Source of the DNA: Escherichia phage EPIMAM01
DNA: 64,000 nucleotides
Strand: one strand, 5' to 3'
Sequence record: PQ493298
The notes under the pieces are model-generated. The model did not search any database. It saw nothing but the letters and a program-made list of their open reading frames with translations, and was not told the DNA's origin. Positions 7,392 to 37,642 of the stretch are shown here, piece by piece (the stretch's first letter is position 1; every line of letters begins with the position of its first letter). The translations under genes were made by a program, and so were the position numbers.

Positions 7392-7862
7392 TTAATCATG
7401 TTTCCACACCCCATCGGTATTTGACCAAAGTCGCTGATTATCTGATCCTCGCCACAGCTTTTTAGTCGGAAGATTTTTCTCATACTTCCCATCAATAATA
7501 ACATCAACATATTTAAGCATTTCTAGTTGTTTAATATCCTCAAACTTATATCCTGTCCACAACCAAATGCTTTTATTTGGATAAAGATTTTTTACTGTTT
7601 GAACAATGCAATGAATAACATCTCGGTTATCAGGATAGAGAGGGTCTCCTCCAGTTATAGTCAATCCTTCTATATAATCATTATTCAAACATTCAATTAA
7701 TTGTTCCAGTGTTTCACCAGTGAATGGAACGCCATTTCTAGCATTCCATGTTGATTTATTATAACACCCTTCGCATTTATGCAAACAACCTGTAACGAAA
7801 AGAACGACCCTGCATCCAGGGCCATTCACAAAATCACAAGGATAAAATCTATCATAATTCAT
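7392..7862 (-). CDS. nrdG: Anaerobic ribonucleotide reductase activating protein NrdG (radical SAM)
   Basis: 156 aa; CxxxCxxC-type cluster motif (GCLHKCEGCYN); ATGA-coupled to nrdD. Confidence 0.85.
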   Translation of the reverse strand: MNYDRFYPCDFVNGPGCRVVLFVTGCLHKCEGCYNKSTWNARNGVPFTGETLEQLIECLNNDYIEGLTITGGDPLYPDNRDVIHCIVQTVKNLYPNKSIWLWTGYKFEDIKQLEMLKYVDVIIDGKYEKNLPTKKLWRGSDNQRLWSNTDGVWKHD

Positions 7863-9676
7863 TGGTGTTTAACCCTATGCATGATTTCTTTATTTTTTCC
7901 AAGATTAAATCCGCGTTCGTTCGGATTTCCCAAATAACCACAAGTTCTTCTTATTGTGTTCATCTTTTTAGGATCAGTTTCTCCACAAATAGAACAAACA
8001 AATCCGTTTTCAGTAGGAGTCATTTCATGAGTACTTCCACACGTAAAACATTTATCTACTGGCATATTAACACCAAAATAATCTAAATGTTGTGCAGCAT
8101 AATCCCATACAGCCTCAAGACCTTTTAGGTTATTTTTCATATCAGGAAGTTCAACATAAGAAATGTGACCACCTGTCGCAATGAAATGATATGGGGCTTC
8201 GCGAGAAATCTTTTCAAACGGAGTAATATTTTCTTCTACTGAAACATGGAAACTGTTAGTGTACCAGCCTTTATCAGTAACATCCTTTACACTTCCATAT
8301 TTCTCAGTATCAAGTTTACAGAAGCGATAGCACAGGTTTTCAGCAGGAGTAGAATACAAGCTAAAAGCAAAACCGGTTCTTTCAGTCCACTGCTTAAGAC
8401 GAGCATTCATTTTAGTTAAAATTTCCTGTCCAATATCACGACCGACAAGAATATTCAATTCGTGAATACCAATGTATCCTAAGGACACTGAACTTCTACC
8501 GTTTTTAAATAACTCAATTATGTCGTCATCAGGTTTAAGACGAACCCCAAATGCACCTTCTTGGTAAAGAATAGGAGCAACAGTCGCTTTAACTCCTTTT
8601 AAGGAACTAATTCTACACATCAAAGCTTCAAAACACAAATCCATTCGTTCATTGAACAATTCAGCAAATTTCTGTTCATTGAACTGTGTTCCAATATAAG
8701 AATCTAACGCAATGCGAGGAAGATTCAGTGTTACAACGCCAAGATTATTACGTCCATCAAGAATTTCATTACCAGTCGAATCTTTCCATACGCTCAAGAA
8801 ACTACGGCAACCCATTGGAGAAACAGGAATAGATGAACCGGTGATAGCTTTATTGTTCTTAGCTGAAATAATATCAGGATACATTCTTTTGCTTGCACAC
8901 TCTAGAGCAAGCTGCTTAATATCATAGTTTGGATCGTCTTTATAAAGATTAACACCTTCTTCAACGAACATAACAAGCTTAGGGAAAATAGGAGTTATCC
9001 CATCACGACCAAGACCTTTAATACGATTTTTCAGAATTGCTTTCTGAATCATTCGTTCAGTCCAGTCAGTTCCCGTACCAAATGTAATTGTTACAAAAGG
9101 CGTTTGTCCGTTTGAACTAAAGAGAGTATTTACTTCATATTCATAAGCTTGGAATGCATCGTATACGTCTTTTTCTGTTTTAGACTGGGCGTAATTCAAT
9201 GCATCGGCGATTTGCCATTTTTCTGCATCCTCAATATGTTTTGCATAGGTGCGTTTAACATATGGAGAAAGTACTTTATCTACATTCGCAAAAGTCGTTC
9301 CGCCATATTGATGAGAAGCAACCTGTGCAGTAATTTGTGCCATAATTGCAGTAGCAACGCCGATTGATTTAGGAGTTTCAATCTGCGCATTACCGAGCTT
9401 AAATCCGTTCTCAAGCATTCCTTTTAAATCTACTAAACAGCAATTAGTAAATGGAAGAGCAGGGGAATAATCAATATCGTGGAAATGGATAATTCCGCTT
9501 TCATGCGCTTTCATAATAAAAGACGGGACCATATTTTTGGCAATGTGTTTAGACACAATACCAGCCATAAGGTCCCGTTGAGTTGGAAAAACACGAGAAT
9601 CTTTATTAGCATTCTCGTTCAAAAGGTCTTTATTAGTTTTATGAATCAATCCTTCAATTTCTTTTTCAATCGTCAT
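7859..9676 (-). CDS. nrdD: Anaerobic ribonucleoside-triphosphate reductase NrdD, uninterrupted
   Basis: 605 aa; C-terminal zinc ribbon CxxC...CxxC and glycyl-radical motif RTCGYLG. Confidence 0.9.
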   Translation of the reverse strand: MTIEKEIEGLIHKTNKDLLNENANKDSRVFPTQRDLMAGIVSKHIAKNMVPSFIMKAHESGIIHFHDIDYSPALPFTNCCLVDLKGMLENGFKLGNAQIETPKSIGVATAIMAQITAQVASHQYGGTTFANVDKVLSPYVKRTYAKHIEDAEKWQIADALNYAQSKTEKDVYDAFQAYEYEVNTLFSSNGQTPFVTITFGTGTDWTERMIQKAILKNRIKGLGRDGITPIFPKLVMFVEEGVNLYKDDPNYDIKQLALECASKRMYPDIISAKNNKAITGSSIPVSPMGCRSFLSVWKDSTGNEILDGRNNLGVVTLNLPRIALDSYIGTQFNEQKFAELFNERMDLCFEALMCRISSLKGVKATVAPILYQEGAFGVRLKPDDDIIELFKNGRSSVSLGYIGIHELNILVGRDIGQEILTKMNARLKQWTERTGFAFSLYSTPAENLCYRFCKLDTEKYGSVKDVTDKGWYTNSFHVSVEENITPFEKISREAPYHFIATGGHISYVELPDMKNNLKGLEAVWDYAAQHLDYFGVNMPVDKCFTCGSTHEMTPTENGFVCSICGETDPKKMNTIRRTCGYLGNPNERGFNLGKNKEIMHRVKHQ

Positions 9677-19364: not shown

Positions 19365-19394
19365 ATAGTACCATAAAGCTTTATGCTTGTAAAC
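19365..19394 (-). promoter_or_regulatory. T4-type early promoter (GTTTAC / TACTAT)
   Basis: gtaaac 19389-19394, atagta 19365-19370. Confidence 0.5.
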
Positions 19395-19424
19395 CGTTTT
19401 GTGAAAAAATTTTGAAATAAAAAA

Positions 19425-19444
19425 AGGGAGCCCGAAGGCTCCCT
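19425..19444 (-). terminator. Stem-loop with UUCG tetraloop (minus strand)
   Basis: gggagcc-cgaa-ggctccc directly after stop of ORF 19446-20459. Confidence 0.55.
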
Positions 19445-27462: not shown

Positions 27463-27764
27463 TAATATTTTTCCTCTGGTTGGAACACAGCACGACAAGC
27501 CCACATACTGGCTTCTTTGAGTTTCGTTTTAGCAATAGTTAACTGATCGAGGCTTTCAGCATAATTCTTCGCGAATTCACAGTCTTCACAATTATCTAGT
27601 GCTTCCCAGAATTCATCATATAAAGCGTCAAAGATAAGTCCTAAACGAACTTCGGCGTCTTTGATAGCATTCACTTTACCGATTTTCTCTTCAGTATGTG
27701 GCTTATAACCCTTAATGTCTTCAATCATATTTGACTTCCTCACCAGTACATAAATCATATTCAA
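27462..27764 (-). CDS. Small protein at vs.4 position (possibly Acb2-like cyclic-oligonucleotide sponge)
   Basis: 100-aa ORF; assignment by position and size only. Confidence 0.45.
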
Positions 27765-27942
27765 CTAAACGAATAGGTTCATGAATGCCATATCCTTGAA
27801 CAGAAATTTCTGTCGTAGGATAAATTCCACTAATATCACCCATATTCCACGCTTCATTAAATTGCTGTTCGCCTGAATTACTAAACCATTCGGCGAAAGC
27901 ATTTAACACATCTTTAGAACCTTCAATAATTATCTTTGCCAT
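27721..27942 (-). CDS. Small hypothetical protein
   Basis: 73-aa ORF. Confidence 0.5.
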   Translation of the reverse strand: MAKIIIEGSKDVLNAFAEWFSNSGEQQFNEAWNMGDISGIYPTTEISVQGYGIHEPIRLVEYDLCTGEEVKYD

Positions 27943-28304
27943 TACAGACTCTCAGTAAAGGTACGAGCGATAACGTCGCGCTGCTGTTCCGGAGTCAGAG
28001 AGTTAAAGCGAACTGCATAACCGGATACACGGATGGTCAGCTGCGGATATTTTTCCGGATGCTTAACTGCATCTTCCAGAGTTTCACGACGCAGAACGTT
28101 AACGTTCAGGTGTTGACCACCTTCAATTTTAACTGTAGGTTGTGTTTCAATTTCAATTTCACGGGCATGCAAACCATAGAAAATTTCTGGATCTACAAAA
28201 GAGTCCTCTTTAAAGGTTTTAGAGACAATAATTCGTGCTTGAATACCATCTTCAAAATAAATAGTACCTTTATGTGTGCCTTCAAGAATTTGATATGCTT
28301 TCAT
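27942..28304 (-). CDS. GrcA/YfiD-like autonomous glycyl-radical protein
   Basis: 120 aa; C-terminal ~59 aa ([40 protein letters not shown]...) match my recollection of E. coli GrcA incl. RVSGY glycyl-radical motif; 3' half markedly GC-richer. Confidence 0.7.
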
Positions 28305-28310
28305 ATAACC

Positions 28311-28640
28311 TCAATTAGAAAATAAATTTATCCAAGATTGTTCTTTAATTAAAAATGGCTCAGAATCATATGCCATCAAACTTTGGGTGATTAGTCCTTT
28401 AAAAGGTCCATCAATAAATTCCATGGTAAAATATGGAATTTTATTCATTAATCTTGCATTAGGAGCAGTGCACAAAACTCTGCATCCTTTGAATACGCCT
28501 TTTTGTAATTTGTATTGCTTAGGATAAAATTCGCTCAAGACGTTGTTATTTGCCAAAATTTCAAAATGATTCACCAATTTATTTTTAATAGTTTTTGGCG
28601 AAAAATAAAGATATTCGAAAAGTTGCGTGTCTGTCATCAT
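28311..28640 (-). CDS. Hypothetical protein
   Basis: 109 aa from ATG 28640 (ATGA overlap with upstream stop). Confidence 0.5.
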   Translation of the reverse strand: MMTDTQLFEYLYFSPKTIKNKLVNHFEILANNNVLSEFYPKQYKLQKGVFKGCRVLCTAPNARLMNKIPYFTMEFIDGPFKGLITQSLMAYDSEPFLIKEQSWINLFSN

Positions 28641-29179
28641 TGCATCCCAATTACGAAAAACTGCGGACGAGTAATACCACCGATGCAGCATTTACTATTG
28701 CAACAGTATTGTACAGTTTCAATATGAATATCGTAAATTTTATCCATATCAGGAGATTTAACAGGCTCATCGATTATATACAGAATTCGAGAAAGCGTTA
28801 AACCTCTGAACTTGCTACCTCTATTACCAACAAAACTACGGACAGAATCAGTAAATAAACGGAATCGAATATCATCGCTAGAATAACGAGAAAATTCTTT
28901 TTTAATGTGGTCCGCAGAAATTTTAGCGTAAGATGAAGTATTAGAAAGAACAATAACTGTTCCACCGTCATACAACCAATTAGCAGCAAAGTTAGTCACA
29001 GCAATTGATTTACCGGATTGACGTCCACCATCTAGTCGAAGTGTGCAGTATTCTTTAAATAAATGTGGCGAATCAGGTACATAAAATCCACTATTACAAA
29101 TTTCTTCTACTCTAGCATCAGAATGGTGTGTAAAAGCATTCATCAGGGATAGATAAGGACCAGTTAAAAATGTTCTCAT
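28637..29179 (-). CDS. Small P-loop NTPase (start uncertain: 29179, 29209 or 29227)
   Basis: Walker A GGRQSGKS and Walker B ILYIIDEP. Confidence 0.5.
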   Translation of the reverse strand: MRTFLTGPYLSLMNAFTHHSDARVEEICNSGFYVPDSPHLFKEYCTLRLDGGRQSGKSIAVTNFAANWLYDGGTVIVLSNTSSYAKISADHIKKEFSRYSSDDIRFRLFTDSVRSFVGNRGSKFRGLTLSRILYIIDEPVKSPDMDKIYDIHIETVQYCCNSKCCIGGITRPQFFVIGMQ

Positions 29180-29189
29180 TTTGTTATCT

Positions 29190-29741
29190 CTAAATTTGGG
29201 CCATTCCATGGCGCATGAATTTTCCATTTCTGTATTTACCCATTACCGCACTTGGGCTCGACCTTATTACAGGTTGGCGGGAATCCCTCATAGAATCATG
29301 AGGTCCAGCTTGTTCCCATGTTATTTGAATGTAAATATTTTTGCCGTAATACTTATACCAGTGTGGCTTCATTAAAATTTTTTCATAGAGTCGCTGTTGA
29401 CTCAATTTAATAGCTGATTTGCATGGATTATAATCATTTTTCCATTCTGCTGGAATATCGCTGATGTCAGGAACTTCAGTATCTTTTATACTAAACCCAC
29501 GTTTTAAGCATTCCATTATAATGTCTGATTGACGCTTTCGCAAAAATTCTAACTTATCGTAAAAGAACGTGACATGACCAGAACCTAAAATAAACTCGGA
29601 AGATATTTTAAAATCTTTAACCCGTTTACCATTTGCCACGTGTTTACGAACTATACCAAAAACACGTGGCAATTCACGGTATTCCGCAATTAAATGTTGG
29701 TCAGCAAGTTCAGATACTAAAGTCAAATTAATACGAGTCAT
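29190..29741 (-). CDS. denV: Endonuclease V (pyrimidine-dimer DNA glycosylase) DenV with ~45-aa C-terminal extension
   Basis: First ~138 aa ([17 protein letters not shown]...WYKYYGK) as recalled for T4 endo V; ORF continues to TAG at 29190. Confidence 0.75.
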
Positions 29742-29765
29742 TTTATCTCTCCAAGTAACTGTGAA

Positions 29766-29795
29766 TATACTATCACAATTCTAGGAGAAAATAAA
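29766..29795 (-). promoter_or_regulatory. Early promoter upstream of denV (GTTTAT / TAGTAT); copy 1 of ~40-bp direct repeat
   Basis: near-identical to 30139-30168 element. Confidence 0.45.
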
Positions 29796-29798
29796 CTG

Positions 29799-30101
29799 TT
29801 ATTTACCTTTAATTACTTTAGCTGCTTCGATAGCCGCTTGCTGAAGGTCATCCATAGACATACCGAATTTAGAAGCAAAGTTATCAATTTTCTTTTCGAC
29901 AGCATTCAAAGGCTTGGCCTGTTTACCTTCATTAGCGCCAGGAAGAGCGAGAATACGCTCTTTGTCAATATAAAGGCTTACAAGTTTCTTACGGTCTTTA
30001 TCGGACAAATCGTGAAATGAATGGGCCTTTTTATTTATAGCGGCTTCTAATTTACCTGCACTCACTCGCGCTTCAGTAATAAATTCTTGATATGTTTTCA
30101 T
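29799..30101 (-). CDS. ipII: Internal protein II-like (capsid-targeting-sequence protein)
   Basis: 100 aa; N-terminal MKTYQEFITEA capsid targeting sequence; between denV and e as in T4. Confidence 0.7.
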   Translation of the reverse strand: MKTYQEFITEARVSAGKLEAAINKKAHSFHDLSDKDRKKLVSLYIDKERILALPGANEGKQAKPLNAVEKKIDNFASKFGMSMDDLQQAAIEAAKVIKGK

Positions 30102-30138
30102 ATGTTTCCTTTAAATATTTTAATTAGTAATTGTGAAT

Positions 30139-30168
30139 ATACTATCGCAGTTTTAGGAGAAAATAAAC
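30139..30168 (-). promoter_or_regulatory. Early promoter upstream of ipII; copy 2 of direct repeat
   Basis: gtgaatatactatcgcagttttaggagaaaataaac. Confidence 0.45.
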
Positions 30169-30172
30169 AACT

Positions 30173-30703
<531 letters not shown>

Positions 30704-31159
30704 TTAAAAGAGGTTGTTCATTATTCTGTAAAGTGAAGGACCCATCACATATTGCCACTGAGTACAAGGAATAAGAGCAAAAGCATCCATCTCTGGAATC
30801 ATAACACCATCTTTATTTTCAAAATAAGACTCACAATGGCAATTTCTAAACATCTCATGCTCTACTGGAATCGTATAATAAAATAGCTGTAAGTCTTTAT
30901 TACTAGAATATTTAAATACACCTAGGTCTTCTAGAAGGTCTGGATTATAATTACTAAAGCCAGTCTCTTCTAAACATTCTCTTTTTGCAGCTTCCAGTGC
31001 ATTCAAATCAGAACTTTCTACACGCCCCTTTGGAATATCCCAGCGATGTGCCATCATTCCAGGTTTACGAGAACCGGTAACTCGTCCCATAAATAAATCT
31101 TTATCTTCTGTCATAAAGATAATACCAGCTGATAATGTTTTCATTTTAATTTCCTGCAT
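30704..31159 (-). CDS. nudE: Nudix hydrolase NudE (e.1)
   Basis: 151 aa; Nudix box-like ALEAAKRECLEETGF. Confidence 0.75.
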   Translation of the reverse strand: MQEIKMKTLSAGIIFMTEDKDLFMGRVTGSRKPGMMAHRWDIPKGRVESSDLNALEAAKRECLEETGFSNYNPDLLEDLGVFKYSSNKDLQLFYYTIPVEHEMFRNCHCESYFENKDGVMIPEMDAFALIPCTQWQYVMGPSLYRIMNNLF

Positions 31160-31629
31160 TCAGTGATAAAATTATTTAAATTTTGAGCATATTTCTTTTC
31201 ATCAAAAATCTTTTGTTGTTTGCGCATCCGCCATGGCATTTCAATGAACATGTACCATATTTCTGATAATATTGATGCTGTAAAAATATTAACAAGTATG
31301 GTTAAAAGAATCCAATCTCCTATTCTGTCCATTGGATTTTTTATAAAAAAGTAAAATACGAATGATGACACAGGAAGACTAATGATATACCACAGAATCA
31401 TAATCTTATCTGTGAACCATTCAGCATTCGTTAACTTAGCACGACCATTATGAATACACACGAATTTATCATCTGTTACAGTAGATGGCTTAACTGCTTG
31501 ATATCCCATTCTAAACTCCCTAATTAATCGTTTCTTTGTATCTTCAGAACAGCCGCTCCAGTCAACTCTATCAACTGAAATGCCATCGTCCCCATCATCT
31601 AAATCATACCAGTGAGTTTTTAAAATCAT
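31141..31629 (-). CDS. Membrane protein with conserved C-terminal F-I-x-E-C-R-K tail
   Basis: 162 aa; two hydrophobic helices; tail NNFITECRKLK. Confidence 0.55.
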   Translation of the reverse strand: MILKTHWYDLDDGDDGISVDRVDWSGCSEDTKKRLIREFRMGYQAVKPSTVTDDKFVCIHNGRAKLTNAEWFTDKIMILWYIISLPVSSFVFYFFIKNPMDRIGDWILLTILVNIFTASILSEIWYMFIEMPWRMRKQQKIFDEKKYAQNLNNFITECRKLK

Positions 31630-32000
31630 TTAATTTTCCTACAATCACTCACAAACTCTTCCATTGATTCTTTTTCAATATAAGACATATAGCTATTATA
31701 TTCCTTTAATTGTATTTTGTAATCCTTTTTTCTTTGCCAATTTATTTTAAAATTATCATAATGAAAATATAACATGGTACCAAAGAATGAAAATAATGAA
31801 ATTGCTATAGTATAATGAAGTTCACTCCAAACTTCTATTATATCTACTATACCGCTGACGTTACTGCGGATGTTTAAAATAAAACAGTCAATTAACAATC
31901 CAATAAAACTACCCGCAAGAGCTGCAGCCAATGCCACAGCAAAAATTAAAAATGACTCAGAAAAAGAATATTTGACTTTATTTAGTTTTGGCTTTTGCAT
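31626..32000 (-). CDS. Membrane protein, paralog (tail EEFVSDCRKIK)
   Basis: 124 aa; two TM helices. Confidence 0.55.
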   Translation of the reverse strand: MQKPKLNKVKYSFSESFLIFAVALAAALAGSFIGLLIDCFILNIRSNVSGIVDIIEVWSELHYTIAISLFSFFGTMLYFHYDNFKINWQRKKDYKIQLKEYNSYMSYIEKESMEEFVSDCRKIK

Positions 32001-32374
32001 CGTGATTCCTTAACAAATTTCATAATTTCATCAAATTCATACATATCTAGCTTAAGCTGGTGTTCCTTTTTAATCTTTTTACACTGAGCTTTCCAATCAC
32101 GTACACGTTTACGATAATGTCTTCCTTGATACCAGTATCCTACCCAATTTACAGGTACTAATAAAAGCGGAACTACCAATGGAAGAATTAGTGTTGCTCC
32201 AAATATTACACCAGATTCAATATCAGTCATAACGTCTATAACCATTCCAGCAATCACCAAAATCACAAATGATACAGCTACCACAGGACCTATTAACACA
32301 TCAGTAGAAATTAGCTGACGCTTTGGTTCATACTTCACAGGTTTACTTGGAAGGTATAGTGATGGCTTTGACAT
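31982..32374 (-). CDS. Membrane protein, paralog (tail MKFVKESRCKSQN)
   Basis: 130 aa from ATG 32374; two TM helices. Confidence 0.5.
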   Translation of the reverse strand: MSKPSLYLPSKPVKYEPKRQLISTDVLIGPVVAVSFVILVIAGMVIDVMTDIESGVIFGATLILPLVVPLLLVPVNWVGYWYQGRHYRKRVRDWKAQCKKIKKEHQLKLDMYEFDEIMKFVKESRCKSQN

Positions 32375-32957
32375 ATTCTCTACATTCCTTAACAAATTTT
32401 TCTAATAATAAATCGCTTTCAAAATTGGGATTTTCTACGAATTTATCAAAAAGATCATCAACAATAGTTAAGATATTCTTTTTACTAAGAATACGCTTAT
32501 TTTCATATTTTGTTTCAGAGTCAACTATAAGAGTAAAGAAATATTTCTTTCCCTGAAATTTTACCGTAGTATCAATATAAAATAAATTTGATTTTTGTAA
32601 ATTACGTTTAAACCATGCATCACTTAAACTATAAACGCCAAGATAATCATAATCGTCGTTTAAATAACAAACCGTCCATTCAGGAGAAATGAAATCAGTA
32701 AATTCAACATCAAAATCACATGTCAATGAATGAATTGATTCAATACTGTTAATGAGTATTCCAGGACGTATTAAAGACTTTTTACCTCTATAAAATCTTC
32801 CAGAAAGACTTTCATCAGTTTCATATGAAGACCCCCAATAGTAATTACGTCCTTCTGCCATGCGTTTAAGAGCATTTAGTAATTGGTCTGGAACATCAAC
32901 CTGTCTTTGGAACTCTTCAAACATTGAATTGAAATCACTTTGCATTTTCATTTTCAT
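32343..32957 (-). CDS. Hypothetical protein with C-terminal EKFVKECREYVK motif
   Basis: 204-aa ORF. Confidence 0.55.
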   Translation of the reverse strand: MKMKMQSDFNSMFEEFQRQVDVPDQLLNALKRMAEGRNYYWGSSYETDESLSGRFYRGKKSLIRPGILINSIESIHSLTCDFDVEFTDFISPEWTVCYLNDDYDYLGVYSLSDAWFKRNLQKSNLFYIDTTVKFQGKKYFFTLIVDSETKYENKRILSKKNILTIVDDLFDKFVENPNFESDLLLEKFVKECREYVKAITIPSK

Positions 32958-32976
32958 TCCTATTTACTCCAAGTAT

Positions 32977-32995
32977 AAGGGGCCGAAGCCCCTTA
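32977..32995 (-). terminator. Stem-loop with UUCG tetraloop (minus strand)
   Basis: taaggggc-cgaa-gcccctta. Confidence 0.5.
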
Positions 32996-32998
32996 TCA

Positions 32999-33592
32999 TT
33001 ATTTCAGAGAATTAATGTATTCCTGAACATCGGCAGAGGTAGTTTCAACCCCAGAAATATTACCATTAAAGGTTTCAACTCGAGCAAGGGTATCTTCAAT
33101 ATCAACCTTAGTCAGTGCTGCAATTTCAACTACATCATCGGCAGTACTAATTCCAAGGGCATTTGCCGCACGAGTTTCACGGATATATTCCAATTTAACT
33201 GCAAGCTCTTGACGAGCATCATCTAACTCAACTACTTTCTTGGCGATTTCAATTCGCATTTCAGCATAACCGTCAGCCTTAGTAGTCAACTGCTCAGCTG
33301 TTCGACGATATAGTAAACCGAGTTTAGCATGCATTGTTACATCTTGACCTTCGGAAAGAAGTTTACGAATTTCACGCTCTTTTGATTCAGCCTGTCGATT
33401 CTTTTCGACAATAAGTTCACGAATACGTTTTTCTTCATTAATAGATTTAACAGAAGCAGTTTTTAGATCTTTAATTTTATCAAGCAGTTTTGCTGCTGCA
33501 GCAGTATACTGTTCTTCAACAGATAGATTTTTAGCCATAGCAGAACCAAGTTTAGTGCGAATAAACTCAACAATTTTCTTTAGTGTGTTCAT
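32999..33592 (-). CDS. Coiled-coil protein (possibly PspA/IM30-like)
   Basis: 197 aa, strongly helical with heptad periodicity and E/K/R richness. Confidence 0.5.
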
Positions 33593-33634
33593 AGTATTTC
33601 CTTAGGTTGATTAAAAATAAAATCTGTGGAAGAA

Positions 33635-34165
33635 TTATATCATGCTATTTAAGAGGTGTAAACTATTTTTAATTTTACAAATTCGTTCAGCTTCTTCAAC
33701 AGCGGCGGCGATAATGCTTTTAGCTATAGGAGTACTAATACTAGTAGCTTTTACACTTAACACGATTTCTTTATCTTTACCAGGCCAACCCCACGTTTTT
33801 TCACCGTGAGTGCCTTTAATTACAGCAGACACCTCAAGTGAGCATCCATTATCACATGTTTTTACATTAACAACCCAAGGGTCACTTTTCTCAACCGGTT
33901 TATCAATCGGTTTATCCCAGTAAATATTAAGAATACGTGGGACATCAAATTTAGCAGGGCAAATCTTAACCGTAAGACCTTCGCTTTCTAGCCAATTAAT
34001 AAGAGGGCGTTCATACATGCGGCGATGTGGGCTTCGGACTCGACAAGCCTTGTGCCCATTGCTTGCGGCTTCACTAAGCTGTTCTAATACCTGCTTTTGC
34101 ATTATTGATAAGATACCATCAAAAGATTTTTCGGAAGTTTCATTCAGTTCTGTATAAAGAGACAT
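33635..34165 (-). CDS. Hypothetical protein
   Basis: 176-aa ORF. Confidence 0.55.
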   Translation of the reverse strand: MSLYTELNETSEKSFDGILSIMQKQVLEQLSEAASNGHKACRVRSPHRRMYERPLINWLESEGLTVKICPAKFDVPRILNIYWDKPIDKPVEKSDPWVVNVKTCDNGCSLEVSAVIKGTHGEKTWGWPGKDKEIVLSVKATSISTPIAKSIIAAAVEEAERICKIKNSLHLLNSMI

Positions 34166-34190
34166 AACGGTTTCCTCAAGTTACAGGCTC

Positions 34191-34220
34191 ATAATATCTC
34201 AATCATGAGCCTATGTAAAC
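34191..34220 (-). promoter_or_regulatory. Early promoter with -10 inside inverted repeat (aggctcat / atgagcct)
   Basis: gtaaac 34215-34220, ataata 34191-34196. Confidence 0.45.
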
Positions 34221-34484
34221 TTATTTCATATTATTGAAATATTCTTCTGCGATTTCGTCGTTATCGTGGTAAACTTTAGAAGACAGTTTAACATAACCTT
34301 CAGCAGTGAACATATTAATCACAACCTTTACAGTATACCACTGTCCGTCTTCATTACCCATTACTGCGTAAGTTTCAAACATCGGATGGTCAGGACCGAT
34401 AATTTTAATATCATTCACTGTACGACCGAAATCTTCTGAAACGCATTTCATAAAGAAGTTGAACAGTTCGCCGTAATTATCCAT
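34221..34484 (-). CDS. Hypothetical protein (87 aa from ATG 34484)
   Basis: GGAGA Shine-Dalgarno before ATG 34484; track start lies upstream of promoter -10. Confidence 0.5.
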   Translation of the reverse strand: MDNYGELFNFFMKCVSEDFGRTVNDIKIIGPDHPMFETYAVMGNEDGQWYTVKVVINMFTAEGYVKLSSKVYHDNDEIAEEYFNNMK

Positions 34485-34528
34485 TTCATTCTCCAAGCTG
34501 TTTTTCTGTATCAGTAGTTGATAGTTGT

Positions 34529-34558
34529 ATAGTACCATGGAAGAACAGAGATGTAAAC
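34529..34558 (-). promoter_or_regulatory. T4-type early promoter (GTTTAC / TACTAT)
   Basis: gtaaac 34553-34558, atagta 34529-34534; near-identical to element at 19365-19394. Confidence 0.5.
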
Positions 34559-34702
34559 CGTTTTGTGAAAAAATTTTTAGGGAATTCTAGGGCAGGGAGG
34601 GGCAATTAAAAGGTAGGATTAATATATTACCAAATGATGACTAGAGAGGTCCAGAAAGGCCTAGATACCAAAAAGCCCTATCATTTAGATAGGGATTTAA
34701 AA

Positions 34703-35266
34703 TTATTTACCTAGTTTAGTTATTATAGCTTCTGCAGCAGCTTTTAGCTTAGATGCAGTGTTAATACGATTTTTAATTTCAGTATACGCATCGCCAAGAA
34801 CATCAAGGCTATCAGAATAAACACTTACACTATTGCGTTCGCTATTTGAAATAGAACCTTTAGTTTTACGATCAAAATCGGTGTACACGTCTTGAAGATC
34901 GCGGGCTGCCTTCTTTGCATCATCCAATGCATCAAGAGCTTTATTCAAAGCATTAACGTATTTTTTAGTGTCGAACATATTCTTAGAAATTTTAACAGGT
35001 GCACGTTCAGGAGTAGCTAATACAGATTTAGGAACCTGAGCGCCAGATGCCAATTTCTTAGAAATTTTGAAAAATGCTTTATTGAATTTATTTTCTTGAC
35101 TCATTGTAAAAGAACTATTATCGATGTTGTACATTTCAATAGCTTTAGCTTTCCACTTAAGAAAATCGCCGCGGTCTTTTGGGTCCAATTGGAAGAATAC
35201 TTTAGTAAGATCTGCTTCAGATGGTAATTTTGCTGCTTCGGTTAAAAATTCGGCATAGGTTTTCAT
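34703..35266 (-). CDS. Internal protein (IPIII-like size) with capsid targeting sequence
   Basis: 187 aa; N-terminus MKTYAEFLTEA. Confidence 0.65.
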   Translation of the reverse strand: MKTYAEFLTEAAKLPSEADLTKVFFQLDPKDRGDFLKWKAKAIEMYNIDNSSFTMSQENKFNKAFFKISKKLASGAQVPKSVLATPERAPVKISKNMFDTKKYVNALNKALDALDDAKKAARDLQDVYTDFDRKTKGSISNSERNSVSVYSDSLDVLGDAYTEIKNRINTASKLKAAAEAIITKLGK

Positions 35267-35360
35267 TTAAAATCCTTGAAATAATTTATCGGTTGGTTAT
35301 TAATTATTTATTACTTTGTTACTATCCGTAGCAGCATTCTCTATGTGATTCAAACTAAAA

Positions 35361-35384
35361 AGCCCCAACCTTTCGGCTGGGGCT
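35361..35384 (-). terminator. GC hairpin; copy 1 of ~35-bp direct repeat flanking internal-protein gene
   Basis: ctaaaaagccccaacctttcggctggggctaag. Confidence 0.5.
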
Positions 35385-35391
35385 AAGAATG

Positions 35392-35865
35392 TTATTTGAT
35401 TTGTTTAGCAGACCAAATGCGGTCTTTAATAATTTTTTGGATGTCTTCAACATACTCAAGAGAGTGAACATGTGGATTATCTTTGAAACTATAAGCACGG
35501 GCTAACTTTTGGCCTTCGGTTTTGATTACTAAAAGCTCTTTAAGGATAGCTTCATATTTAGAGATAATTCCTTTAACGATATTTTTTTCTTGTGCAGCTT
35601 TAGGATCTGCTTTAGGAGCAGGTTTACCCGAAGCCTTTGCAAAAGCAGCGCCAGTAGCAACTAAACTTTTCCAGGCCATACTAACTGCATTTCCCGTAAA
35701 TCCTTCTGCTTTCATGTCGCGAGCAAATTGGAATCGTGATTCGTCAGAAGCATCTTTATAGGAATATTTACCCGCTGCAATGGCTGCTTTTGCGACAGCT
35801 TGAATTTCGGTGCTAGATGCTTCATTTAACACCGCTTCATTTAAAAATTGAGCATATGATTTCAT
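35392..35865 (-). CDS. Internal protein with capsid targeting sequence (Ala/Lys-rich)
   Basis: 157 aa; N-terminus MKSYAQFLNEA. Confidence 0.6.
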   Translation of the reverse strand: MKSYAQFLNEAVLNEASSTEIQAVAKAAIAAGKYSYKDASDESRFQFARDMKAEGFTGNAVSMAWKSLVATGAAFAKASGKPAPKADPKAAQEKNIVKGIISKYEAILKELLVIKTEGQKLARAYSFKDNPHVHSLEYVEDIQKIIKDRIWSAKQIK

Positions 35866-35919
35866 CTTATTTCCTGTTTTAATTCGTGGATTTAATATAC
35901 TACTATATTTATACTAAAA

Positions 35920-35943
35920 AGCCCCAACCTTTCGGTCGGGGCT
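35920..35943 (-). terminator. GC hairpin; copy 2 of ~35-bp direct repeat
   Basis: ctaaaaagccccaacctttcggtcggggctaag. Confidence 0.5.
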
Positions 35944-35949
35944 AAGCCT

Positions 35950-36250
35950 TGCGGCAACCTTGTCGGGGTTCCACCTGCTAAGGCAAGTGTTTGTACGAAA
36001 CGCCGGGATTCGAACCCGGTTATTAAGCAGTTGACGCTACTCAATATTTTTAAAAGGCCATATCTCGACCATATCCGAACGTTCCGTCAAAAACGCTACT
36101 CGGCTTACGGCAAAGATATTTCCTCGAATCGATAATTCTGTGCGCCGTTTCTGCTGTGATGTAAGGGGACATTAACAGATCGTAAAGATTTGTTAATGCC
36201 AGTCCTTACCCAGGGAACATCAGTCCGACGACTTACCGGTAGCGACCCGG
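35950..36250 (-). ncRNA. Region likely encoding small stable RNAs of the tRNA operon (T4 species 1/2-like)
   Basis: No ORF; tRNA-like T-arm (accgggttcgaatcccggcg) and GC stems; position downstream of tRNA-Arg as in T4. Confidence 0.4.
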
Positions 36251-36254
36251 TTTC

Positions 36255-36605
36255 TTAATATTCTTTTAAAGCATCAATCTGTTCACGGCGTTTACGCCAT
36301 AAATCAATTGCTTCATACGCAGATTCAGCATTTCGAATTAGTCGGCATTTGTGTAAAGACTTGTGATTTTGATATTGCGTAGATAACGAAATTTTATCTA
36401 AAAGGTCTTTACGTTCAAAGTATTCGTAACCATCTAAGCCAAATGAACGATTTTTGAGAAATTGCCAATGACCATATTCGTTTTCGACATAAACATAATC
36501 CGCATGTTGATAAAGCAAATTAATTACACGTTCAGAAATAACAGTGTCATTGTGATTAAAATAAAATGTTAAATCATGAACTACTAAATAAACATTACCT
36601 TTCAT
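36255..36605 (-). CDS. Hypothetical protein embedded in tRNA operon
   Basis: 116-aa ORF; GAGGAAA Shine-Dalgarno directly after tRNA-Arg 3' end. Confidence 0.5.
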   Translation of the reverse strand: MKGNVYLVVHDLTFYFNHNDTVISERVINLLYQHADYVYVENEYGHWQFLKNRSFGLDGYEYFERKDLLDKISLSTQYQNHKSLHKCRLIRNAESAYEAIDLWRKRREQIDALKEY

Positions 36606-36621
36606 ATTTTCCTCACTTAAT

Positions 36622-36697
36622 TGGTCGAGGCAGTAGGGATCGAACCTACGACCTAGGACTTAGAAGGTCCTTGCTCTTCCTTCTGAGCTATGCCCCG
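36622..36697 (-). tRNA. tRNA-Arg (anticodon UCU)
   Basis: Cloverleaf folded by hand; anticodon loop CUUCUAA; encoded CCA. Confidence 0.8.
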
Positions 36698-36701
36698 TAA
36701 T

Positions 36702-36777
36702 TGGGGTGACCGATGGGGGTCGAACCCATGACTACGAGAATCACAATCTCGAGTTCTACCAACTGAACTACGGCCAC
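36702..36777 (-). tRNA. tRNA-His (anticodon GUG)
   Basis: 7-bp acceptor, D-loop with GG, anticodon loop UUGUGAU, T-loop TTCGACC; no encoded G-1. Confidence 0.65.
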
Positions 36778-36870
36778 ATTAATACCTACTCCAACAATCA
36801 AGATGTCTTCACACGAAATTAAGAGAAGAGTGATCAGTTCAACCCTATAATCGCGTCAAGTAGATATTAA

Positions 36871-36886
36871 TGTGACAGTTGTCACA
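36871..36886. repeat. Palindrome TGTGACA-gt-TGTCACA in tRNA spacer
   Basis: 7-bp inverted repeat with 2-nt centre. Confidence 0.4.
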
Positions 36887-36890
36887 AATT

Positions 36891-36965
36891 TGGCGGACGT
36901 GATAGGATTCGAACCTATAACCAATCGCTTAACAGGCGATCGCTCTGCCATTGAGCTACACATCC
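36891..36965 (-). tRNA. tRNA-Asn (anticodon GUU)
   Basis: Canonical stems: D-stem GCTC/GAGC, anticodon stem ATCGC/GCGAT, loop CUGUUAA; CCA encoded. Confidence 0.8.
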
Positions 36966-36969
36966 AAAT

Positions 36970-37055
36970 TGGTGGGGAGTGATGGAGTCGAACCACCCGA
37001 GTCGCAATGACAATGGATTTACAGTCCACACCGCTACCTCTACGGGATAACTCCC
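36970..37055 (-). tRNA. tRNA-Tyr (anticodon GUA), class II with long variable arm
   Basis: Anticodon loop CUGUAAA; long variable arm; CCA encoded. Confidence 0.65.
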
Positions 37056-37069
37056 CTTAATTCTTAATT

Positions 37070-37144
37070 TGGTGGCCCTGGGTGGAATTGAACCACCATC
37101 TGGCGATTATGAGTCGCTTGCTTGAACCTTCCAGCTACAGGGCC
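37070..37144 (-). tRNA. tRNA with CAU anticodon (Ile via lysidine, as in T4, or Met)
   Basis: Anticodon loop CUCAUAA; sits at the position of T4 tRNA-Ile after tRNA-Thr. Confidence 0.7.
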
Positions 37145-37145
37145 T

Positions 37146-37221
37146 TGGTGCTGATTGACGGAATCGAACCGCCGACCTTCTCATTACAAGTGAGTTGCTC
37201 TACCTACTGAGCTAAATCAGC
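37146..37221 (-). tRNA. tRNA-Thr (anticodon UGU)
   Basis: Anticodon loop CUUGUAA; adjacent to CAU tRNA (dimeric precursor arrangement). Confidence 0.8.
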
Positions 37222-37226
37222 AAAAC

Positions 37227-37316
37227 TGGCGGAGGCGATAGGATTTGAACCTATGAGTCGTCGGAGCGACTGCCGGTTTTCAAGACCGGTGCATTAAACC
37301 ACTCTGCCACGCCTCC
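37227..37316 (-). tRNA. tRNA-Ser (anticodon UGA), class II
   Basis: Anticodon stem CCGGU/ACCGG, loop CUUGAAA; long variable arm. Confidence 0.8.
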
Positions 37317-37318
37317 AG

Positions 37319-37392
37319 TCTCCATACAAGGATTTGAACCTTGGACCTCCTGATCCCAAATCAGGCGCTCTACCAAACTGAGCTACACGGAG
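37319..37392 (-). tRNA. tRNA-Pro (anticodon UGG), CCA not encoded
   Basis: Anticodon loop UUUGGGA; 2-nt spacer to tRNA-Ser (Pro-Ser dimer as in T4). Confidence 0.75.
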
Positions 37393-37402
37393 TAAATTAA
37401 AT

Positions 37403-37476
<74 letters not shown>

Positions 37477-37481
37477 AAATT

Positions 37482-37568
37482 TGGTGCGAGAAGTGGGACT
37501 CGAACCCACAAGGAAATCATTCCGCAGCATTTTAAGTGCTGTGCCTTTACCAATTTGACCATTCTCGC
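37482..37568 (-). tRNA. tRNA-Leu (anticodon UAA), class II
   Basis: Anticodon stem CAGCA/UGCUG, loop CUUAAAA; long variable arm. Confidence 0.8.
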
Positions 37569-37569
37569 G

Positions 37570-37642
37570 CTGAGAATAAAGGACTCGAACCTTTGCATCC
37601 TGGAATCAAAATCCAGTGCCTTACCAACTTGGCTAATTCCCA
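37570..37642 (-). tRNA. tRNA-Gln (anticodon UUG), CCA not encoded
   Basis: Anticodon stem CUGGA/UCCAG, loop UUUUGAU; 1-nt spacer to tRNA-Leu (Gln-Leu dimer as in T4). Confidence 0.75.

Follow-up and report, generated by a model that had tools for sequence, protein, structure and literature searches.

Gene vs.6 of Escherichia phage EPIMAM01 carries in its 3′ half an unbroken run of 175/175 nucleotides (nt) identical to grcA of its host species, E. coli. The run was established by pairwise alignment and dot displays at positions 27952–28126 of the window, by which we mean the whole 64,000-nt stretch of the phage (record PQ493298) that was analysed and to which all window coordinates refer. The source phage is T4-like and belongs to the genus Tequatrovirus, with Escherichia phage UGKSEcP1 as its best match (99.4 % identity across vs.6). 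The vs.6 gene and the function of its product Vs.6 (Y06I) as a spare part are already known from T4, the function having been shown in 2001. Taken as a whole, the data are very probably best explained by a Y06I-type spare part for pyruvate formate-lyase (PFL) whose gene has become a mosaic through replacement of an internal segment by host grcA.

Identity of Vs.6 and its host-identical tract

Vs.6 returned matches to Pfam Gly_radical (PF01228, E = 2.2e-18), to E. coli GrcA (PDB 6OWR, 4.6e-42) and to PFL residues 697–759 (4.8e-26), and its RVSGYAV motif is of the GrcA/PflB type. BLASTP against E. coli GrcA gave 74/100 identities; residues 61–120 are all identical, RVSGY included, residues 22–59 align weakly and with few identities to GrcA 28–66, and residues 1–21 are unaligned. 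In the alignments, G95 of Vs.6 corresponds to G102 of GrcA and to G734 of PflB. The protein shares 118/120 residues with T4 Vs.6 (NP_049730; differences T54P and R73H), and exactly the same protein is on record in RB68 and 26 other Tequatrovirus entries. The gene stands alone as an open reading frame (ORF) that has a start and a stop to itself, lies between unrelated small genes and is not fused to a catalytic barrel. On these grounds, Vs.6 is predicted to fit the structural definition of a GrcA-type cofactor (InterPro IPR011140) and to represent a divergent phage branch of that family (PHROG 1209). A first-pass annotation, made from the sequence alone, had already called a GrcA/YfiD-like ORF at 27942–28304 with its radical glycine in RVSGY, and both assignments are borne out, the glycine being G95 (codon 28020–28022).

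BLASTn analysis against 5,426 complete E. coli genomes matched gene nt 179–363 to the 3′ end of grcA in every genome (98.9 % identity, 183/185). On the 5′ side of the 175-nt tract, identity to E. coli grcA falls to about 50 % near window position 28126, while the last 10 nt of vs.6 carry GAG/AGT states that are common to distant phage lineages, where E. coli has GAA AGC. Phage-type sequence thus flanks the tract on both sides within the ORF, and the tract is therefore an internal patch. Its 5′ edge coincides with the onset of phage–host similarity, at the block encoding EGGQH, and its 3′ edge lies 10 nt short of the gene end. The stop of vs.6 overlaps the start of vs.5 (TAATG), and this overlap may, speculatively, explain why the final bases of vs.6 stayed phage-type.

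When the whole 64 kb was compared with the same genomes by megablast, the tract was the sole stretch to match all 5,426. No other species-wide E. coli segment was found in the 64 kb, the remaining hits being the match of the tract to the grcA paralogue pflB (about 80 %) and a single 54-nt hit. The latter (window 19376–19429, 94.5 %) falls in an unannotated spot of one E. coli genome (strain BE104) and is the sole megablast hit in the first 22 kb. We also considered pflB as a donor and ruled it out at about 80 % identity (79.8 % for the copy in phage IME537; 79.9 % for the window sequence against E. coli pflB).

The composition of the tract sets it apart from its surroundings. Its guanine plus cytosine (GC) content is 0.491, vs. 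0.320 in the 5′ part of vs.6 and 0.350 in the window (tract z = 3.1), and only 0.7 % of 175-nt windows reach or exceed this value, all others of which lie in the tRNA cluster or at 35911–36115. GC at third codon positions stands at 0.42 for the tract against 0.15 for the 5′ half, and the tract uses codons preferred by E. coli (CTG for 5/5 Leu, CCG for 3/3 Pro, CGT/CGC for 6/6 Arg). The first-pass annotation had noted a GC-richer segment at about 27945–28120, close to the 175/175 match, and had suggested a mosaic made by capture of host DNA. The nucleotide match to grcA, the breaks in GC and codon usage, the step in identity from ~50 % to 100 % and the diverged, phage-type 5′ half all agree with that suggestion.

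The direction of the exchange can be read from bacterial grcA genes, the two halves of which diverge together (E. coli vs. Citrobacter: tract 0.92, 5′ half 0.88; vs. Salmonella: tract 0.83, 5′ half 0.84). Because divergence is even along bacterial grcA, the E. coli allele is native and the phage is the recipient. The nearest tracts in bacteria other than E. coli are those of a cryptic Escherichia sp. (98.9 %) and Citrobacter amalonaticus (92 %), so the donor must have been E. coli itself or one of its very near relatives. The host as donor is thus supported by the host-type codons of the tract, by the even divergence of bacterial grcA and by the existence of phage lineages that lack the patch.

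Such lineages were found in Karamvirus, Pseudotevenvirus, Aeromonas T4-like phages and T5-like phages, all of which encode vs.6 homologues. The 3′ halves of these genes have phage-like codons and 67–87 % identity to any bacterial grcA in a panel of 81 genomes; for the Karamvirus, T5-like and Aeromonas phage tracts specifically, the range is 67–78 %. Since homologues with phage-type 3′ halves exist and the 5′ half is itself GrcA-like, vs.6 is an old phage gene that has been partly overwritten, and not a fresh capture of a whole gene. Among the T5-like phages, Kenya-K44 (L089:1320-1688) and TrudiGerster (L090:1315-1683), both Demerecviridae, carry a 122-amino acid (aa) homologue among tRNA genes. 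The C-terminus of this protein (TFTQAM/TFTQAI) is nearer to that of PflB (TFTQSM) than to that of GrcA (TFTESL), and the T5-like homologue may derive separately from a PFL-type gene.

Citrobacter phage Maroon (L088:1360-1722) provides an internal yardstick, as the C-terminal 61 residues of its homologue are the same as those of E. coli GrcA, yet nucleotide identity is 85 %. Maroon therefore shows what protein constraint alone yields, and the 44/44 identical synonymous sites in the tract of EPIMAM01 exclude convergent codon optimisation. The GC content of the Maroon homologue is intermediate (0.49 in the 3′ half vs. 0.40 in the 5′ half), and its tract could be an older host patch that has partly decayed towards phage composition.

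Spread of the tract and a parallel in Klebsiella phages

Megablast of E. coli grcA returned 752 phage records. About 640 of these, at 95–99.5 % identity, are Tequatrovirus and Mosigvirus phages of Escherichia, Shigella, Yersinia and Salmonella, and in 50/50 of the high-identity matches listed the alignment begins at grcA nt 199/200. Compared with Mosigviruses, EPIMAM01 shows 58–78 % identity in the flanks, 88–89 % in the 5′ block of vs.6 and 97.7–98.9 % in the tract. Tequatrovirus and Mosigvirus differ at a proportion of synonymous sites (pS, Nei-Gojobori) of 0.33 in the 5′ block and of 0.08 on average in the tract, where most pairs lie at 0–0.09. Between EPIMAM01, RB14 or contig L097 on one side and the Mosigvirus-type contig L095 on the other, tract pS is 0 (P = 6e-8 under equal rates). 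The low pS of the tract relative to the 5′ block means that the patch arose long after Tequatrovirus and Mosigvirus had separated. It may have passed from phage to phage, or the host may have supplied it anew. An IMG/VR scan for population-level variation of the tract gave 4 loci, a sample too small to test polymorphism.

The most divergent phage tract, that of IME537, carries 6/175 substitutions and reaches at best 96.8 % identity to any of the 5,426 E. coli genomes; its divergence is similar to that of vs.5 in the same phage (8/222). We had considered distinct E. coli donor alleles as a source of the divergent tracts, a proposal that is unsupported, as no allele fits IME537 and the divergence resembles that of neighbouring genes.

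A second host-type segment was found in the vs.6 homologues of Klebsiella Jiaodavirus, in which the 3′ half has a GC content of 0.55 vs. 0.37 and Klebsiella-type codons. Scanning metagenomes with the Jiaodavirus tract pattern retrieved 24 bacterial grcA genes and one 166-kb phage contig (L110). The bacterial protein retrieved is exactly GRCA_KLEP7, and the common metagenome allele equals K. pneumoniae chromosome CP125156.1 over the last 201 nt. The longest exact runs shared with K. pneumoniae grcA are 158 nt in L110, 132 nt in Merci and 92 nt in FRZ284, each of which shares an exact run of at most 38 nt with E. coli grcA; the corresponding runs of EPIMAM01 are 175 nt with E. coli and only 31 nt with K. 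pneumoniae. The Jiaodavirus patch begins at the same 5′ edge as that of the E. coli phages (the start of the EGGQH-coding block) and ends at least 15 nt further upstream at its 3′ edge. The isolates are 2–7 % diverged from the donor allele. When K. pneumoniae grcA was used as a query against phages, 134 records matched at 90–99 %, with Klebsiella phages in every match listed, while E. coli phages matched at 86–88 %.

Two Klebsiella loci of the first bacterial panel (L023 and L025) are only 87–88 % identical to the Jiaodavirus tracts and were initially counted against a Klebsiella donor. The K. pneumoniae allele was confirmed by exact protein look-up and by CP125156.1 (L134), a chromosome filed as a plasmid in PLSDB; K. 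aerogenes LR134122.1 was left out because its grcA is frameshifted. Whole chromosomes carry a plasmid label in other PLSDB records too (NZ_OL790696.1 among them), and records of this kind, such as one of 5.37 Mb from K. pneumoniae, are a trap for plasmid statistics.

Judging from these sequences, replacement of the same segment by host DNA has occurred independently at least twice, each time matching the host genus. With some hesitation, we suggest that vs.6 may be a recurrent site of host-to-phage gene conversion in virulent T-even phages, bounded by the end of homology, at which grcA of the current host overwrites the structured domain. Perfect homology may then keep the segment being re-copied, in concerted evolution with the host, and the less GC-rich tracts of 73–87 % identity seen elsewhere would be older, decaying patches.

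Proposed function and competing explanations

According to PMC8683613, which cites Wagner et al. 2001, the host PFL-activating enzyme (PFL-AE) installs the radical on both T4 Y06I and E. coli YfiD, and the two proteins restore the activity of PFL cleaved by oxygen at G734 (cPFL). In the same paper, YfiD residues 1–60 are described as disordered and as aiding cPFL binding and activation, residues 61–127 as sharing the fold of PFL 693–759, and all glycyl-radical enzymes as undergoing the same oxygen cleavage. The tract, equivalent to GrcA codons 67–125, spans most of the structured glycyl-radical domain, and the phage-type 5′ half would correspond to the disordered region.

By analogy with the T4 orthologue, oxygen would cleave host PFL at Gly734, and the C-terminal domain of Vs.6 would take the place of the lost C-terminal domain of PflB. 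Host PflA would then place a radical on G95 of Vs.6 and so bring back PFL activity, which would sustain acetyl-CoA/ATP and formate in the microaerobic infected cell. Class III ribonucleotide reductase uses formate as its reductant (Mulliez et al. 1995). PFL-derived formate could thus also feed phage NrdD. As to the origin of the gene, 175 nt of an ancestral phage grcA homologue were swapped for the matching stretch of E. coli grcA, probably by patch recombination or gene conversion with host DNA, and K. pneumoniae grcA was the donor of a separate replacement of like kind in the Jiaodaviruses.

The first-pass annotation had anticipated two roles for the protein. Rescue of oxygen-damaged host PflB corresponds to the biochemistry published for the T4 orthologue Y06I (Wagner et al. 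2001, as given in PMC8683613), the activator of which is host PFL-AE and not NrdG, and would extend to Vs.6 by orthology. A link to phage anaerobic deoxyribonucleoside triphosphate synthesis had also been proposed on account of nrdD and nrdG some 20 kb away, which are indeed located at a distance of about 18–21 kb; here, a direct link to NrdD/NrdG found no support (BLASTP E = 2.6), while an indirect one via formate is plausible.

Of the competing accounts of the tract, a single capture of the whole gene from E. coli, followed by fast divergence of the 5′ part and freezing of the 3′ part by purifying selection without any separate replacement, would fit the homology of the entire protein to GrcA and the very strong protein constraint on the C-terminal domain (nonsynonymous differences, Nd, about 0). 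It is nonetheless extremely unlikely, as the absence of differences at 44 synonymous sites goes beyond protein constraint, the synonymous sites of the 5′ half are saturated, and the same domain occurs at 67–87 % nucleotide identity in other phage genera, with that of Maroon identical in protein at 85 %. Transfer from phage to bacterium has been reported for cyanophage psbA (PMC1484495), a precedent with nothing specific to vs.6; this route, like an assembly or contamination artefact, is hardly credible here, given that the composition and codons of the tract are E. coli-like and not phage-like, that bacterial grcA genes diverge evenly along their length among genera, and that ~640 independent phage records, reference T4 among them, contain the tract, as does every one of the 5,426 E. 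coli genomes. Ongoing concerted evolution, in which host grcA is repeatedly re-copied into the phage via the 175-nt homology between fixed edges, would refine the replacement model and not displace it. In keeping with it, the tracts of EPIMAM01, RB14, L097 and L095 show 0 differences from E. coli despite a pS of 0.31–0.36 in the 5′ block, the edges are identical in 10/10 aligned phage copies, the differences of phages from E. coli are mostly private and scattered, and the Jiaodavirus tract has the same start point. However, the tracts of some phages carry 4–7 substitutions that trace to no E. coli allele, one acquisition followed by ordinary mutation would account for IME537, and a single recent acquisition combined with phage–phage recombination fits the data about equally well; we therefore regard repeated re-copying as possible but somewhat doubtful.

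With regard to function, Vs.6 might instead be a spare part for phage NrdD, activated by NrdG. Both proteins are encoded in the same window, oxygen cleavage is common to all glycyl-radical enzymes according to PMC8683613, and in Aeromonas phage Ah1 (L092:1297-1680) the vs.6 homologue lies directly between nrdG and nrdC within a block nrdD-nrdG-vs.6-nrdC-nrdH, a positional link to anaerobic nucleotide reduction in that lineage. Against this, the domain of Vs.6 is of the GrcA/PflB type, the source of the patch is host grcA and not nrdD, and the T4 orthologue is reported to act with PFL and PFL-AE. Similarity between Vs.6 and phage NrdD is not significant (E = 2.6), and direct repair of NrdD is therefore very unlikely.

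Several points weigh against our interpretation of vs.6 as a Y06I-type gene patched with host grcA. Vs.6 scores 154.6 bits against TIGR04365 (the NCBIfam GrcA equivalog), below the cutoff of 170, and aligns with profile positions 25–126 only, while E. coli GrcA scores 233.9 bits; the shortfall arises because the N-terminal half has diverged. In YfiD, the N-terminal half contributes to cPFL binding and activation. The function proposed for Vs.6 of this phage is taken over from the T4 orthologue, we found no in vivo phenotype of vs.6 in the literature, and the connection between formate and NrdD is inferred. The recombination mechanism is likewise deduced from its footprint in the sequence. Since Maroon has the same protein domain without identity to host DNA, the patch may be a neutral by-product of homology and not an adaptation. 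Finally, not every host genus shows a matching patch: in the phage collection, no record exceeds 84 % identity to Salmonella grcA, and Salmonella phages accordingly yielded no patch of Salmonella type.

Genomic context and comparison with known systems

The local gene order, denV - vs.8 - vs.7 - vs.6 - vs.5 - vs.4 - vs.3 - regB, is the same in T4 and RB14. Promoter and terminator scans around vs.6 returned sites no more often than in shuffled sequence.

Table 1. Location of vs.6, its segments and related genes in the 64,000-nt window of phage EPIMAM01
Feature	Position	Strand	Evidence
vs.6 / Y06I orthologue, autonomous glycyl-radical cofactor (GrcA-like), 120 aa	27942..28304	-	ORF, Pfam, PDB matches, T4 identity
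Phage-type 5′ block, codons 1-59 and base 1 of codon 60	28127..28304	-	GC, alignment
Host-derived tract, 175 nt = E. coli grcA nt 200-374 (GrcA codons 67-125)	27952..28126	-	blastn, alignments
Radical glycine codon GGT, G95 within RVSGY	28020..28022	-	sequence, alignments
Phage-type 3′ tail of vs.6, G AGT CTG TAA	27942..27951	-	dot alignments, ORF list
vs.5, downstream neighbour, function unknown, PHROG 1986	27721..27942	-	RB14 and T4 annotation
vs.7, upstream neighbour, function unknown, PHROG 2049	28311..28691	-	ORF list, RB14 and T4 annotation
nrdD, phage anaerobic ribonucleotide reductase (context)	7859-9676	-	Pfam NRDD 1.8e-171 with Gly_radical
nrdG, activase of NrdD (context)	7392-7862	-	Fer4_12/Radical_SAM

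Other features of the window were noted in passing. The denV ORF (29190–29741, minus strand) encodes 183 aa vs. 138 aa (417 nt) in T4, with a C-terminal extension of ~45 aa that overlaps the start of vs.8 (28637–29227); a 552-nt denV coding sequence is annotated likewise in UGKSEcP1, and Pfam Pyr_excise covers residues 1–86 only. The nrdD gene is one uninterrupted ORF of 605 aa; T4 nrdD (sunY) contains a group I intron, which this phage appears to lack. Eleven tRNA genes (Arg, His, Asn, Tyr, Met, Thr, Ser, Pro, Gly, Leu and Gln) are located at 36622–37642 on the minus strand, whereas T4 has eight. Adjoining this cluster, the region 35911–36115 has a GC content of >= 0.49 in 175-nt windows and returned no tRNA and no Rfam family at the gathering threshold; the T4 stable RNAs C/D are located near this region. 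Lastly, ~236 records of non-mobilizable 'plasmids', nearly all from E. coli, match short pieces of window ~29237–37394 at 80–90 % (locus L136), as exemplified by pRHB39-C03_2 (137 kb; four pieces at 90.9 %), and these pieces may be phage-plasmid tRNA genes.

No account of the nucleotide mosaic, or of its counterpart in Klebsiella phages, turned up in the literature searched, with the proviso that Wagner 2001 or the older T4 literature may mention the nucleotide identity. Virulent T-even phages are usually thought to exchange little DNA with their hosts, and one of them here carries a domain-bounded stretch of 175 nt of host sequence at 100 % identity. This makes vs.6 an unusually clean case of intragenic exchange between host and phage, with donor, direction and edges named, where earlier cases were argued mostly from cyanophage photosynthesis genes. 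A point for phage-therapy genomics is that every E. coli or K. pneumoniae chromosome has a short homology in common with T4-like phages that is competent for recombination.

Among known systems, T4 Vs.6/Y06I has the same position (vs.7 - vs.6 - vs.5, near denV and regB) and a host-identical tract with the same edges, but a single base of this tract departs from E. coli (CGT to CAT, R73H), where that of EPIMAM01 shows no such change. E. coli GrcA (6OWR) shares with Vs.6 the C-terminal 60 residues, the 175 nt and, probably, the plan of a small stand-alone protein in which a structured radical domain follows a flexible N-terminal half; Vs.6 falls 7 residues short of the length of GrcA, resembles it only distantly in the N-terminal half and is encoded in a phage operon, whereas grcA lies beside ung. 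The C-terminal domain of PflB (~693–759) is the part that Vs.6 and GrcA mimic or replace and has a 13-residue motif in common with them, but the DNA of this stretch matches E. coli pflB at only about 80 %. The Jiaodavirus Vs.6 shares with EPIMAM01 the gene, the 5′ edge and the presence of host grcA in the 3′ half, and differs in its donor (K. pneumoniae grcA) and in a 3′ edge that lies at least 15 nt upstream.

Among processes already described, recombination within psbA/psbD between cyanophage and host genomes comes nearest (Zeidner et al. 2005; Sullivan et al. 2006, PMC1484495); it likewise concerns auxiliary metabolic genes of T4-like phages, the patchy G+C of which is attributed to segments exchanged with the host copy. 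Unlike psbA/psbD, vs.6 contains a single stretch, placed on a domain boundary and 100 % identical to a named host allele, so that donor and direction are unambiguous; it belongs to a classical enterobacterial T-even phage, and the same segment has been replaced independently in phages of two host genera.

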